A stretch of 64,000 bases of DNA from a virus (IMGVR_UViG_3300028832_000112:41681-105680), one strand, 5' to 3'; shown: positions 11,668 to 43,255, numbered from the stretch's first letter. Numbers and translations are program-made. The notes: a model not told the origin generated them from the letters alone.

Positions 11668-12143
11668 GGAAATTGATGCCAGTCTTTTTCGCCGTCCTAC
11701 TGGTGGTGTCCTTGGCCCGTGCGGTAAGGATGGTTAAAAAGATTGCCGCTGGCACGGCGGCTGGCATCGCTGACTTCTACTCCCAGATCAGCATAGCCGA
11801 CAACTACTATGTCGGCGTTATGGTAAATGCGTGGAGTAAAAACGGCCCGATTCGTGTCGCATATCTATGGCGAGAAACCGCCACTAGGGATCGGCAGCTC
11901 GCTGATAATGTCAAGAACTATGTCGCTAGGCAGATTCCGTCGCTAAAGAGCGAACTGGTAGTCAAGAAGGCGTCACCAGTCAAGGATTCTGGCCGTGCGG
12001 ATATGCATATAGGGTCGATGTCGATGACTCCGGGTGTAACCGCCCAAGAGAAATTTATGCTCAGGACGGCATCCGCCATATTGTCCGCTGGTAAGATACT
12101 GCGCGAGGCACTAAAGAGGAAACCGAAATGGGACGACTTGTAA
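11664..12143 (+). CDS. Hypothetical membrane-anchored protein
   Basis: MRKLMPVFFAVLLVVSLA N-terminal hydrophobic segment. Confidence 0.6.
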   Translation: MRKLMPVFFAVLLVVSLARAVRMVKKIAAGTAAGIADFYSQISIADNYYVGVMVNAWSKNGPIRVAYLWRETATRDRQLADNVKNYVARQIPSLKSELVVKKASPVKDSGRADMHIGSMSMTPGVTAQEKFMLRTASAILSAGKILREALKRKPKWDDL

Positions 12144-12814
12144 GCATGACATCGTGGCGTGGAAGAATCCACCGTGTCGCTGACACTGTGGCTACCATAC
12201 GCGCACACGCGAAAAATGCGCACATCGTCCTTACTCTTGCCGAGGACGAGTTCGAAGGCGTCGGACTGCCTGAGCTGGGCGTGGACGAAGTCATCTGGTG
12301 CCCAAGGAACATAGGCCCATTCAAGAAGGTGCTGTACACGATGCGGCGCTATCCCGGCTGTCCAGTGCTGTCGGTCGACGACGACATTAGTTACGGACAA
12401 GTTGTCGATGCAATGTATGGCATGCACGAACGATACCCAGATGATGTTGTCAGCAACTTCCCCAATGTCAAGACTGGCGGTATCAGTCTGCCAAACGGAT
12501 ACGCTACTCTGTATCCGCCGAACTGTCTGGACGGCGCACTGGAGCTTCTGACGGACAGAATTGTGGCGACCAAGAACGACGATGCGTTCTATGGGCTTAT
12601 TTTAATGGAAAAAGGATACAAATTCCGTTACGCAATGCGCCACGATATTGCTATATTTGACAAAGACAACGACGGTTTGCACTTGCTGATGAAGTACCAC
12701 GGCAACGAAGACATCAAGGTCATCGTATCCGAGCTGTACAAGTCAGGCAAGTTCAACCCGACCGACCCAACATTCATCAGCAAATACCCAAAGGAGAAAT
12801 ATGTCCTACAATAA
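12128..12814 (+). CDS. GT-A fold glycosyltransferase-like protein
   Basis: VSMTSW..RI, GPFKK, SVDDD (DxD), LYPP, NDD motifs. Confidence 0.75.
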   Translation: MGRLVSMTSWRGRIHRVADTVATIRAHAKNAHIVLTLAEDEFEGVGLPELGVDEVIWCPRNIGPFKKVLYTMRRYPGCPVLSVDDDISYGQVVDAMYGMHERYPDDVVSNFPNVKTGGISLPNGYATLYPPNCLDGALELLTDRIVATKNDDAFYGLILMEKGYKFRYAMRHDIAIFDKDNDGLHLLMKYHGNEDIKVIVSELYKSGKFNPTDPTFISKYPKEKYVLQ

Positions 12815-37331: not shown

Positions 37332-37374
37332 AATATAGCAAAAGTTTGACACCGCGTCAGCGCTTTGCTATATT
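37332..37374. promoter_or_regulatory. Interlocked divergent leaderless promoters
   Basis: Plus TTGACA(37346)-N17-TATATT; minus CTGACG-N17-TATATT. Confidence 0.8.
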
Positions 37375-37381
37375 TAGCACT

Positions 37382-37921
37382 ATGATAATCGACAACTTAA
37401 TAGACCAGATGGTCAAGTTGCGCAAGGCGTACGGCCCTATCGAAGTGGACTTCTGCGATACGCAATGCTTCGGCGCTCTGCACGACCAGGTGGCAATCCG
37501 CATTGATGAATTTGGCGACGTCCTCGCCGTCCTCCAGTCCGCTTACCGCAAGAAGAAGTACAAGTTCAACAAGGTCATGCAGAATGACTCGTGGCTCCAG
37601 TTCAAGGAACCGAATACCAGCGACAAGGAAGCCAAGCGACGCTGGGCGGAAGCCGGAAAGCCGAGCAAGATGCATCCGGTCGTCATCAAGGACTCCGTTG
37701 ACACTAGACCTCTGATTGGCTATGCGGTTATCTGGGGACAGTACAGCCTCAACTTGAACCGTTTCGAGACAACGGAAGTGTATATGGAGTCTCGGAACAC
37801 TGGCGAGGATCTGCTGAATGACGCTCACAACACGATTCCCCGTATTTGCTGTGGATGGAAGTTCATCAACTTGGTCAACCTCGGCGAAGTGAAGGTAGGC
37901 AATGAAAAGACAAGCGATTAA
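37382..37921 (+). CDS. Hypothetical protein (leaderless)
   Basis: MIIDNLIDQM start fixed by promoter. Confidence 0.7.
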   Translation: MIIDNLIDQMVKLRKAYGPIEVDFCDTQCFGALHDQVAIRIDEFGDVLAVLQSAYRKKKYKFNKVMQNDSWLQFKEPNTSDKEAKRRWAEAGKPSKMHPVVIKDSVDTRPLIGYAVIWGQYSLNLNRFETTEVYMESRNTGEDLLNDAHNTIPRICCGWKFINLVNLGEVKVGNEKTSD

Positions 37922-38384: not shown

Positions 38385-38756
38385 ATGAATTATCAGTCAT
38401 TCCGGACTTGCGTCCGTTCGTATTTTCCAAACATCCGTTTTTATGACAACCTAATTTATCTGTTTCCGAACGATCTTACCAAGTGTCGCGGCAATAGCGA
38501 CGTCCTCATACAGCTTTGCAAGGAATTCAATCTTCCGTATGATCGCATCTTGATTAAGAATTTCTGGAAGTCGCAGAACCTCGTGATCGGATATACCGAC
38601 TGGACGAACGCTTGGGAGACCGAAGAGCATGGCGGTGCCGACTACAGCTATTCATTCAGTGGGAATACCCACGTGCTGGAGGTCGAAGAACGGTTGCTCC
38701 GCCTATTGAAGCTGGCACACGATTCAAACTGCTTCCACTACAACAAGGTTAAGTGA
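38385..38756 (+). CDS. Hypothetical protein
   Basis: RBS GAGGAGG. Confidence 0.65.
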   Translation: MNYQSFRTCVRSYFPNIRFYDNLIYLFPNDLTKCRGNSDVLIQLCKEFNLPYDRILIKNFWKSQNLVIGYTDWTNAWETEEHGGADYSYSFSGNTHVLEVEERLLRLLKLAHDSNCFHYNKVK

Positions 38757-39505
38757 TGAAATACGTCGGCATTACAGAGACTTATGACCCGTGCTTCGTT
38801 CCGGACTGGGAGACCAGACTCCTCGAAGCCAACGTCGTCATATCCAAGGAGCTATCGGATGAGATGGTCGAAAAGCTCCTTATCGTACAGAACCGGGTGA
38901 TATTCCATCACACGGTCACTGGACAAGGCGGTTCCGTGTTGGAACCCAATGTCAAGACGCCAGAACACGAATTCGACCAGTTCAAGAAACTCGTCGAACG
39001 TGGGTTCGACACCACGCACTACGTCCTCCGTCTGGATCCGATCGTTCTGCTGAACAAGGAATGCCAGGACAACATATACAAGGTTCTTGATATGTGGAGC
39101 GGCTACGCAAAGGAGCATGGGATTGTGCTCCGATGCCGCGTATCGGTAGTCGACTTGTATCCTCATGCGGTGGATCGCATGAGGAACAAGGGCGTTACCC
39201 TTCTGTGGAAGAGTTTCAAGGCTCCGAAGGCGGTGTTCCACCGTACCGAGTCCATCCTTGGCAAGTACACGGAATGGTTCCACTTCGAGAGCTGCGCCGA
39301 GACCGACTTTACCGCCGACTTCATCGACAAGATGGGATGCGTGAGCTACAAGGACTTGCGTCTGCTTAACATCAAGGACGCCCAGTACACTGCACCGCTT
39401 ACGAAGCAGCGAGAAAATTGCATGTGCTTGGCGAAGCGCCAGATTCTTGGCATACGTCCTCGACGTTGTCCGCACGGATGCCTTTACTGTTTTTGGGAGG
39501 ATTGA
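38753..39505 (+). CDS. DUF1848 family (SP-lyase/radical-SAM-related) protein
   Basis: TVTG..LEPNV, RLDPI, SCAE, QRENCMC, CPHGCLYCFW. Confidence 0.8.
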   Translation: MMKYVGITETYDPCFVPDWETRLLEANVVISKELSDEMVEKLLIVQNRVIFHHTVTGQGGSVLEPNVKTPEHEFDQFKKLVERGFDTTHYVLRLDPIVLLNKECQDNIYKVLDMWSGYAKEHGIVLRCRVSVVDLYPHAVDRMRNKGVTLLWKSFKAPKAVFHRTESILGKYTEWFHFESCAETDFTADFIDKMGCVSYKDLRLLNIKDAQYTAPLTKQRENCMCLAKRQILGIRPRRCPHGCLYCFWED

Positions 39506-39787: not shown

Positions 39788-40060
39788 ATGATCATTCGTT
39801 TGTTTGACTACGAACTGCGTATAAACGTGTCTCTCGTTAATACGAAGGCCAAGCTGTATTACATCCGCGCCACTTGGACGGACGGCACTGTCGGCTATTA
39901 CGGCATCGGGCAGAACGTCAAGGGCGACATCTGGTATCCGGTATGCAACAAGCAGTATGCCATGTGCTATTACCGCAAGGAAGCCAAGAAGCAGCTGAAG
40001 ATGCTGCGCTATCTGTTCCGCAAGGATACTTCGATGTCGCTTGCCTTAGAGGAAGTATGA
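39788..40060 (+). CDS. Hypothetical protein
   Basis: Operon context. Confidence 0.6.
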   Translation: MIIRLFDYELRINVSLVNTKAKLYYIRATWTDGTVGYYGIGQNVKGDIWYPVCNKQYAMCYYRKEAKKQLKMLRYLFRKDTSMSLALEEV

Positions 40061-40467
40061 AGTACGAATTTATCTTCAAGGTGTTCAAGGACTACTACTG
40101 TTCCAAGTACGTCCATTCGCATCTTGTAGGCTACTTCAGGAGCGAAGCCTCTGCCGATCGAGAAATTTCCTATCTGAAAAAGCACGAGTTCGAACTCGGT
40201 CACCGGGTCGAGTATCGTATTGAAAAGGAATCGGCTACTCTGTATCCGAACATGGTGGCCGACTGGGAGGCGGAAGACCGCGAGGCAGAACTAGAAGAAC
40301 AACGTGCATTCGCTCCTATTCCGCTTCCGAGAGTACGCAAGCGGTTTCCGTCCTTGCTGGCACAGTCGGCAATGGAATTCAATATCGAGGAGTTCCATCA
40401 AAAAACGGCGAACAACATGATGTCGTTCGTCCGTTCAATGCAAAAGCATCGCCGTCACCGCCGCTAG
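40057..40467 (+). CDS. Hypothetical with major-capsid Gol-like segment (paralog of 42698-43255)
   Basis: GYFRS domain; FAPIPLPRVRKRFPSLLAQ; RBS GAGGA. Confidence 0.7.
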   Translation: MKYEFIFKVFKDYYCSKYVHSHLVGYFRSEASADREISYLKKHEFELGHRVEYRIEKESATLYPNMVADWEAEDREAELEEQRAFAPIPLPRVRKRFPSLLAQSAMEFNIEEFHQKTANNMMSFVRSMQKHRRHRR

Positions 40468-42371: not shown

Positions 42372-42415
42372 AATATAGCAAATAAATTGACTTGTGTAAT
42401 TGTTTTTGCTATATT
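42372..42415. promoter_or_regulatory. Interlocked divergent leaderless promoters
   Basis: Plus TTGACT(42387)-N17-TATATT; minus ATTACA-N17-TATATT; both ATGs 7 nt downstream. Confidence 0.8.
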
Positions 42416-42422
42416 TGCTTGC

Positions 42423-42698
42423 ATGAATAAGAACTTCTGGATATTCTTTCTACGATACTTATGGGGTTGCTGCATCTCCTTTCTGTCGATGGCGTTCGTG
42501 ATTTTATACGGAATTGCGTGGCTGGCTACGGTGCTGATGATTGCGGTCGCCGTCGTGCCCGATCTGATCGGCCAAGGACTTCGCTGGCTAATCTGCAGCA
42601 TATACAGATTCTTTGGGCCGACTTGCCGCGAAGGCGAGGACTTGAGGAATCCGTTGTCTCGATTCAGTAAATGGTTTCTGGAAAAGGTTAAGCTCTGA
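42423..42698 (+). CDS. Small membrane protein (leaderless)
   Basis: Hydrophobic; start fixed by promoter. Confidence 0.65.
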   Translation: MNKNFWIFFLRYLWGCCISFLSMAFVILYGIAWLATVLMIAVAVVPDLIGQGLRWLICSIYRFFGPTCREGEDLRNPLSRFSKWFLEKVKL

Positions 42699-43255
42699 TG
42701 GGTGTAAAAATTATAGAATACAAGGGAGCCAAGCTCCACTACAAGGAACGCTGCTACGAGCTTTACCGTATCTATCCTAGCGGCAAGGAATGGTTCTGCG
42801 GCTACTTCCGTAGTCAAGAAGACTACGAGATCGAGCTGGCTCGCTGCAAGAACGAGGAAGCTGGCCCAGATGAATATGTCATCAAGGAAGTTCCTTCCGC
42901 TGGTATTCCTGTAGCCAAGATACACGACGTCGTCGAGGAGCGCAAGCGCCGCAACAAGGAAGCACGACAACGAGCCATCGAAGCCAGAAAGTGGGCCGAA
43001 GAGCGCAAGAAACTCATAGCAGACTGGGAACGCGAGGAGCGCGAATGGCGCGAGAAGCATCCCGGCCAAGCAAGACGGCTGATCGACCGTAGGTTTCCTC
43101 CGCTGTTCGATTGTCATGCGCTTCCGCCAGTTTGCACAACCCCAGACGGCATCTACAAGGCGCTTCGGTATCTTTATCCGGACTCCGTCAAGAAGTTCGT
43201 TAAGTCGACCGACTTTGCCAAGACGATCAAACCTCGTAGGAGGAAGAAACGATGA
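42698..43255 (+). CDS. Hypothetical with major-capsid Gol-like segment
   Basis: GYFRS domain, charged helix, LIDRRFPPLF...TPDGIYKALRYLY. Confidence 0.75.
   Translation: MGVKIIEYKGAKLHYKERCYELYRIYPSGKEWFCGYFRSQEDYEIELARCKNEEAGPDEYVIKEVPSAGIPVAKIHDVVEERKRRNKEARQRAIEARKWAEERKKLIADWEREEREWREKHPGQARRLIDRRFPPLFDCHALPPVCTTPDGIYKALRYLYPDSVKKFVKSTDFAKTIKPRRRKKR

Follow-up and report, generated by a model that had tools for sequence, protein, structure and literature searches.

Small accessory proteins of a rumen jumbo phage carry a segment resembling the N-terminal arm of Gp23-type capsid proteins

The window analysed here is a 64,000-nucleotide stretch of one virus contig of 105,680 bp, estimated to be 26% complete, and its source is an uncultivated rumen jumbo phage. 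The gene under study, P0001, is an intact plus-strand open reading frame that encodes 136 aa and runs from an ATG at 40057 to a stop codon at 40465-40467. A GAGGA ribosome-binding site precedes it, its start overlaps the upstream stop codon (ATGA), and it is the final gene of its own operon. A second gene, P0002, encodes 185 aa and lies downstream, and the stop codon of a small hydrophobic gene overlaps its start (TGATG). The first-pass annotation had described two copies about 2.6 kb apart in separate operons. The two starts are separated by 2641 nt, and the P0001 operon and the P0002 operon are each preceded by a sigma70-like promoter site of their own (Table 1). The window contains nine sites of this type (TTG[AC]C., 17 nt, TG.TATATT). 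The first ATGs of the two operons, at 37382 and 42423, each lie 7 nt past the -10 box and lack a Shine-Dalgarno sequence; this spacing implies that the first genes of both operons are leaderless.

Table 1. Coordinates of the genes and features discussed, counted from the first nucleotide of the window.
Feature	Position	Strand	Evidence or remark
Sigma70-like promoter, P0001 operon: TTGACA, 17 nt, TGcTATATT	37346..37374	+	
DUF1848 gene, in P0001 operon	38753..39505	+	Pfam E 5.7e-20
P0001, gene under study	40057..40467	+	18 homologs, 60-97% identity
P0001 N-terminal module	40057..40311	+	AlphaFold2 model; topology matches P0002
Capsid-like linear motif IPLPRVRKRFPSLLAQSA, P0001 residues 88-105	40318..40371	+	hhalign, BLASTP
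P0001 C-terminal helix, with basic tail HRRHRR at its end	40348..40464	+	
Sigma70-like promoter, second operon: TTGACT, 17 nt, TGcTATATT	42387..42415	+	
Small hydrophobic protein (probably membrane), first gene of second operon	42423..42698	+	
P0002, paralog	42698..43255	+	N-terminal fold as in P0001, longer charged helix, basic tail
P0002 capsid-derived segment, residues 122-176: RRLIDRRFPPLF...TTPDGIYKALRYLYPDS	43061..43225	+	hhalign, BLASTP, reverse search

The four motifs that had been reported as common to both proteins (GYFRS, Y.I(E/K), WE.E.RE and RFP.L) were all present and colinear. P0001 carries GYFRS (residues 25-29), EYRIEKE, WEAEDRE and RFPSL, and P0002 carries GYFRS, EYVIKEV, WEREERE and RFPPL in the same order. 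The segment first noticed as capsid-like, FAPIPLPRVRKRFPSLLAQ, corresponds to residues 85-103 of P0001 and was found exactly where it had been placed, at nt 40309-40365. In the AlphaFold2 model of P0001, residues 5-59 form a strand-strand-helix-strand domain with VGYFRS on strand 2, and the helix at residues 64-85 bears WEAEDRE; mean pLDDT per 10-residue block was 81-94 over this N-terminal module. The motif LPRVRKRFPSLLA lies mostly in a low-confidence linker (pLDDT about 51), its C-terminal residues entering the next modelled helix, and the block means across the motif were 51-70. The P0002 model has the same strand-strand-helix-strand arrangement and long helix, the charged helix spanning 43 residues, and its C-terminal part is longer and poorly modelled. 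A basic C-terminal tail, conserved as an Arg/Lys-rich end, is common to P0001, P0002 and most family members. The shared domain order is thus strand-strand-helix-strand, long helix, [FW]P.L motif and basic tail.

The first-pass annotation had called P0001 a second paralog and had proposed a pairwise alignment of the two proteins as a check. Taken by itself that alignment was marginal: BLASTP of P0001 against P0002 gave an E-value of 0.016 over the GYFRS region only, and phmmer searches with either protein against the contig ORFs did not recover the other (E about 0.4). Alignment of the two family profiles, in contrast, scored 28.4 locally and 33.4 globally (122 columns, with the motifs all colinear), far above 150 column shuffles (13.5 +/- 2.8 local, 2.4 +/- 2.7 global). 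None of the 150 shuffles attained the observed scores, which agrees with the claim that the resemblance is more than chance, and the reversed-profile controls scored 17.1 and 11.6. The P0001-family profile was also run against 1.8 billion representative proteins. This search returned the distant homologs P0031, P0034, P0036, P0038, P0039 and P0040, and the N-termini of the distant homologs, for example VYRLFKIYPTVKWQVGYFRT, bridge the P0001 and P0002 families. A bridging HMM built from seven distant third-party homologs alone, with both the P0001 and P0002 families left out, matched the P0001 family at ~1e-27 and the P0002 family at ~5e-9. The same HMM gave no further match among the ORFs of the 105-kb contig (next ORF, E 0.16), and this contig holds two copies of the family and no others. 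P0001 and P0002 share 22% identity in the family alignment. From the profile comparison, the intermediate sequences and the matching predicted folds, with the pairwise search only marginal, we conclude that P0001 and P0002 are true, old and distant paralogs.

Close homologs of P0001 and P0002 were found in rumen metagenomes, on contigs as long as 468 kb. Some of these contigs had been binned with Fibrobacter, Prevotella or Bacteroidaceae genomes, and host assignment rests on this binning. Near-identical jumbo capsid genes were seen at three loci (L034, L035 and L036) in GTDB bins labelled Prevotella, Fibrobacter and Bacteroidaceae. Binning therefore gives no reliable host label for this phage group. 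The number of family copies varies: a related IMG/VR phage (G001; 355 kb, 93% complete) has one, the Fibrobacter bin has two, and each of two more distant IMG/VR fragments carries a pair spaced about 12 kb apart.

Gene order is kept among the relatives and comprises DUF1848, a 91-aa gene, a 90-aa gene, P0001, convergent genes, a small membrane protein and P0002. At locus L032 a 91-aa gene occupies the position equivalent to the small hydrophobic gene. DUF1848 was the only recognisable gene when the 10 neighbouring genes were compared with Pfam and PHROGs. All family neighborhoods that were seen contain accessory genes (DUF1848, methyltransferase, Fib_succ_major proteins, TnpB) and not head genes, and in G001 about 66 kb separate the family gene from the capsid gene. 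The DUF1848 neighborhood is recurrent: the gene is found at 8694-9443 in L001, and an unrelated 8.9-kb contig has it close to a distant family member (L031, 4006-4779). TnpB or Cas12f-like (OrfB_IS605) genes likewise recur near the block at varying positions (L001, 18694-20043; L031, 6568-7899), and one lies at 869-2095 on the 218-kb NCBI contig that bears P0014. On a 133-kb ENA contig (L029), a Gad2-family gene (PF26128, Gabija anti-defence) was found at 11781-12749, about 1.4 kb downstream of P0040, with a HATPase_c_3 gene and an N6/N4 methyltransferase close by.

Searches of Pfam and PHROGs gave nothing credible for P0001 or P0002, and tblastn against GenBank phages found no match to either. 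Fold searches were similarly unproductive. Foldseek against the PDB revealed no clear relative (best E 0.69), and VIA against the PDB gave scores in the range of common arrangements, both for P0001 (best 8g9s_A, Z 5.0, rmsd 2.0, 57 aligned) and for P0002 (best a helix match, Z 5.2). Scores against the ESM Atlas did not exceed 0.79 and were uninformative; a weak feature match there pointed to DUF7336. The N-terminal domain superposes on many BFVD phage proteins of 55-75 aa, several of them annotated DUF7336, with target-normalised TM of 0.6-0.77 and Foldseek E of 0.01-0.1; three DUF7336 entries in BFVD gave a Foldseek E of 0.04 and target-normalised TM of 0.34-0.77. The DUF7336 sequence model (PF24024) matched 0 of 18 family members at E<=10. 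The resemblance to DUF7336-type small phage proteins is therefore weak and at the level of fold only, without a sequence match.

Two proteins retrieved from the entire representative library with the P0001-family profile, P0037 (505 aa, E 4e-6) and P0041 (675 aa, E 5.7e-4), were set aside as zinc-ribbon repeat proteins whose sole part in common with the family is TLYPDVAAEWDY. The start of their repeat, (L)KTL(Y/F)PDVAAEWDY, closely resembles P0001 TLYPNMVADWEAED, and this resemblance is probably that of a short motif amplified by repetition. Recoding of TGA in G004 was also suspected and was dismissed, as the stops fall outside the gene.

An unbiased scan of G001 with the family profile gave two matches and no others: one P0001-like gene and, through profile positions 82-108, the beginning of a 504-aa frame (E 0.0024). 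This frame is the PF07068 (Gp23) major capsid gene of the phage (E 1.5e-64; protein P0042). A scan of a 3.3-Mb metagenome bin, which contains a second and more distant phage, again reached the capsid gene (E 0.0025). BLASTP against P0042 aligned P0002 with 18 of 39 residues identical (E 8e-7) and P0001 with 12 of 32 (E 2e-4). With the P0002-family profile, the capsid protein topped the list of 6213 G001 frames, above the paralog (E 2.5e-5); the P0001-family profile, searched against the whole of G001, gave no capsid match at E<=1. When compared by hhalign with 16 jumbo-phage capsid proteins, the P0002 family aligned over 52 columns (probability 95.7%, E 9.9e-9) and the P0001 family over 18 columns (probability 25%, E 7.7e-4). 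The aligned stretches were RRLIDRRFPPLF...TTPDGIYKALRYLYPD of P0002 with capsid LPMIRRQFPELL...TTPMGIYFALRYLYDN, and LPRVRKRFPSLLA of P0001 with capsid LPMIRRQFPELLA. They correspond to jumbo capsid residues 63-115 and 65-82, respectively, such that P0002 retains about 50 residues of the capsid stretch and P0001 only the first 14-18.

The relationship was also examined in reverse, with a capsid-segment HMM built from 114 capsid proteins and run against the 1960 frames of the phage's own contig. P0002 ranked first (E 4.2e-6) and P0001 second (E 0.31). The pattern LP.[IVLM]R[RK].[FWL]P.L[LIF], defined after the fact, occurs once per phage (639,000 six-frame residues): the phage of the window has it in P0001, and G001 has it in its capsid protein. 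The phage's own capsid gene was not found on the 26%-complete 105-kb contig, and the comparisons use the capsid proteins of relatives. The PF07068 model did not match P0001 or P0002 at E<=1, nor any of 18 family members at E<=10. Judged from these alignments, the homology of the P0002 segment to the Gp23-type capsid N-arm, equivalent to the Gol region, is solid. The likeness of P0001 to the capsid is short and would be borderline if taken alone. It gains credibility because the motif is aligned and conserved within a family whose other branch has the full segment.

The first-pass annotation had read both proteins as retaining a capsid-like core, the P0001 segment matching the first half of the T4 capsid motif. 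In T4, 13 residues of the Gol region are critical. The T4 motif that it had named is real: 924 T4-like records carry IGPAVMGMVRRAIPNLIA within the major capsid gene with an identity of at least 99%, and it begins at residue 91 in the one T4-like capsid protein looked at. Among 1575 T4-like records the Gol motif occurs once each, and no second copy was found in cultured T4-like phages at that sensitivity. The jumbo capsid aligned with full-length T4 gp23 (PDB 6uzc) at an E-value of 3.9e-27. In this alignment jumbo residues 50-155 correspond to T4 residues 79-187, and ALPMIRRQFPELLAM...GIYFALRYLY pairs with T4 AVMGMVRRAIPNLIAF...GQVFALRAVY; T4 residues about 92-140 align with jumbo residues 63-115, the stretch that is copied in P0002. 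Directly compared with a T4-like gp23 (L004), P0002 had the Gol region as its best local match, yet this was not significant (E 0.59), and for P0001 no Gol-region alignment was among the listed matches. The equivalence of P0001 and P0002 to the T4 Gol region thus holds by transitivity only, through the jumbo capsid sequence. The capsid-like core was upheld against Gp23 capsids of the cognate lineage (E 1e-8 for P0002 and 8e-4 for P0001) and reached no significance against T4 gp23 directly, and its retention in both copies stood as a full segment in P0002 and as the first half only, borderline by itself, in P0001.

In T4 the Gol region comprises 29 residues with a 20-residue core and is the most conserved part of gp23; it binds domains II/III of EF-Tu, inhibits the EF-Tu GTPase and lets Lit cleave EF-Tu, and EF-Tu binding has been proposed for all T4-related phages (PMC3014915). 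Residues 66-105 of gp23* are flexible in the unexpanded head and later form the N-arm. The N-terminal region is thought to touch the scaffold core, Met98 touches the portal whiskers, and the arm subsequently contributes contacts between capsomers (PMC9546572). The first half that P0001 has kept corresponds to this flexible end of the N-arm, which fits its position in a low-confidence linker of the P0001 model.

The capsid-like motif includes some of the most constrained positions of the family. K95, P98 and L100 are invariant among 18 P0001-type sequences and RRFP.L is invariant among 11 P0002-type sequences; loss of the RxxFPxL segment from homologs, which would have weakened the original reading, was thus not what we observed. 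In a combined alignment of 18 sequences that includes the distant members, P98 is invariant and L100 is present in at least 90%, and the few invariant or near-invariant positions include G25 and Y26 (GYF) as well as P98 and L100 ([FW]P.L). The motif residues remain among these few positions even in members at 22-39% identity. Two short distant members of 108 and 110 aa stop just past the motif, P0036 after two residues and P0040 after six, which suggests that the motif is a functional end-point.

By the Nei-Gojobori method, dN/dS against the orthologs in L032, L033 and L001 was 0.24-0.29 for P0001 and 0.10-0.20 for P0002. Both genes are under purifying, not positive, selection. The earlier description of a selected and diversifying family can accordingly be kept for selection, and dropped for diversification in the sense of positive selection (dN/dS 0.10-0.29 overall).

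The second copy in the distant IMG/VR fragments, P0163, is a protein of 216 aa whose N-terminal domain is 30% identical to that of P0002 (E 5e-13). P0163 retains LPLSQRRMPP and, further along, HGIDFALRYLYKNVP, in which 12 of 20 residues are identical to the capsid protein; it has GIDFALRYLYKN where the capsid protein has GIYFALRYLYDN. At L048 (G085, 1447-2094), P0163 seems to repeat the second half of the capsid segment. Its copies have a degenerate WADTIRYCYMDS followed about 40 residues on by the near-exact GIDFALRYLYKN, a hint of renewed copying from the capsid gene. That a capsid peptide should survive almost exactly while the rest of the protein has diverged points to selection acting on the resemblance itself, or else to repeated conversion by the capsid gene. 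Agreement between small protein and capsid at ALR[Y/F]LY was also noted in the three metagenome bins where both were seen, an anecdotal observation in which two of the three bins share identical capsid segments, leaving about two independent cases.

The region upstream of the G001 capsid gene contained neither the sigma70-like extended -10 type nor the T4-type late TATAAATA. From the sigma70-like promoters and the accessory-gene context, we infer that expression of P0001 and P0002 is early and precedes that of the capsid protein.

Few triggers of bacterial immunity are as common as major capsid proteins, which are sensed by Lit, CapRel, Thoeris, CBASS and STAND sensors. To our knowledge, escape mutation in the capsid gene is the only answer of phages that has been described. 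We found no capsid decoy, and no mimic of a phage's own capsid peptide, in the literature on phage counter-defence, and a conserved family of early small proteins bearing the phage's own capsid peptide is, as far as we know, undescribed. The findings are best explained if P0001 and P0002 are members of a family, not described before, of small accessory proteins from rumen jumbo phages whose capsids are of the T4 (Gp23-family) type. These proteins are built on a four-part plan consisting of a VGYFRS domain, an acidic helix with WE.E.RE, a flexible capsid-like stretch and a basic tail. The capsid-like stretch copies the best-conserved peptide of the phage's own major capsid protein, comprising the end of the N-arm and the strands after it.

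These features suggest that P0001 and P0002 serve the phage as a deliberate display of its capsid signature. We tentatively put forward, as a possibility suggested by the sequences, that an early protein displays the capsid peptide and so occupies whatever recognises it, whether an immune sensor or EF-Tu. P0001 and P0002 would be synthesised ahead of the capsid protein and would present the peptide as a linear motif in a flexible region. The displayed peptide would then occupy a cellular partner that otherwise recognises newly made, unassembled capsid protein. This partner would most likely be an abortive-infection sensor that detects capsid, or else the surface of EF-Tu that a Lit-like sensor guards, and recognition of the capsid peptide would be blunted or pre-empted. 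A narrower version is rather doubtful on present indications. It supposes that the proteins are self-PAMP decoys, carried on a small domain, that blind capsid-sensing immunity of the Lit, CapRel or Thoeris type before late capsid synthesis; if true, they would be the first such decoys described in a phage. Several considerations count against a decoy. A peptide that mimics the trigger could activate a sensor instead of blocking it, EF-Tu is too abundant for titration by a small early protein, and a passive decoy would hardly account for the conservation of the N-terminal domain and the basic tail, which suggest some further activity. Lit-type proteases are moreover rare in the genus to which the Fibrobacter bin belongs: of 81 genomes, a single one has a Peptidase_U49 (Lit-type) domain (L042, G028:C54:15612-16097), which lies inside a 616-aa open frame much longer than the family model of 202 positions.

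Capsid-derived peptides might instead serve the assembly of the head. The proteins could be head-assembly factors or packaged internal proteins whose N-arm-like peptide docks on the scaffold core, the portal or the capsid subunits while the basic tail binds DNA, the protein being built into the prohead or regulating capsid assembly. The derivation of the motif from the capsid and the conserved Arg/Lys-rich C-terminus would fit such a role, as would the contacts made by the T4 gp23 N-terminal region with the scaffold core, by Met98 with the portal whiskers and by the arm between capsomers (PMC9546572). We nevertheless regard it as unlikely. In every context seen, the family genes lie among accessory genes and far from structural modules (about 66 kb from the capsid gene in G001), their promoters are sigma70-like and differ from the sequence that precedes the capsid gene, and a capsid-targeting N-terminus of the T4 type is not evident. 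A role in translation appears more improbable still. Here the Gol-equivalent peptide would bind EF-Tu, and the N-terminal domain and basic tail would re-programme early host translation, by analogy with T4 Gol, which binds to domains II/III of EF-Tu and is inhibitory to the GTPase (PMC3014915). The two leaderless starts confirmed in this genome would suit this idea, but P0001 has only part of the Gol region and direct similarity to T4 gp23 was not significant.

There might also be no mimicry at all. P0001 and P0002 would then be ordinary small early proteins with a nucleic-acid-binding or regulatory function, the capsid-like piece of P0002 a neutral relic of an ancient recombination with the capsid gene, and the match in P0001 a coincidence or a generic proline-aromatic linker. 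The similarity of P0001 to the capsid does extend over 18 columns only, at 25% hhalign probability, and the AlphaFold models have no capsid-like hairpin at the segment. The motif residues are, however, among the few family-wide invariant positions, members at 22-39% identity included, and P0163 has a near-exact capsid peptide despite its divergence elsewhere. The segment is also under purifying selection, and P0036 and P0040 end just past the motif. We therefore consider an absence of mimicry improbable. The display of a capsid peptide by an early protein would make the family a candidate for a different answer to capsid-triggered immunity, namely that the phage competes by mimicking its own molecular pattern. 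Should the decoy idea prove wrong, the peptide still points to a functional linear motif in T4-type capsids, one now open to study away from the capsid itself.

With the Gp23 capsid family (PF07068), the two proteins share a homologous stretch of 18 residues in P0001 or 52 residues in P0002. Unlike Gp23 capsids they have no HK97 fold and no A or P domain, the remainder of each protein is unrelated, and their genes lie outside structural modules and behind sigma70-like promoters. The T4 Gol/Lit/EF-Tu exclusion system involves the same region of the capsid protein. There a short T4 peptide suffices for EF-Tu binding and licenses Lit cleavage, and the Gol region can thus act as a stand-alone linear signal. 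In T4, however, Gol belongs to the capsid protein, which is made late, and serves as the trigger, whereas in P0001 and P0002 the equivalent is grafted on separate small proteins. Ocr, and Gp54 of Bas11 (in the CapRel-SJ46 system), are likewise small accessory proteins that engage host immunity by mimicry or alongside the capsid. Ocr differs in that it mimics DNA and not a phage protein, and Gp54 differs in that it is an activator and has not been reported to be capsid-like.
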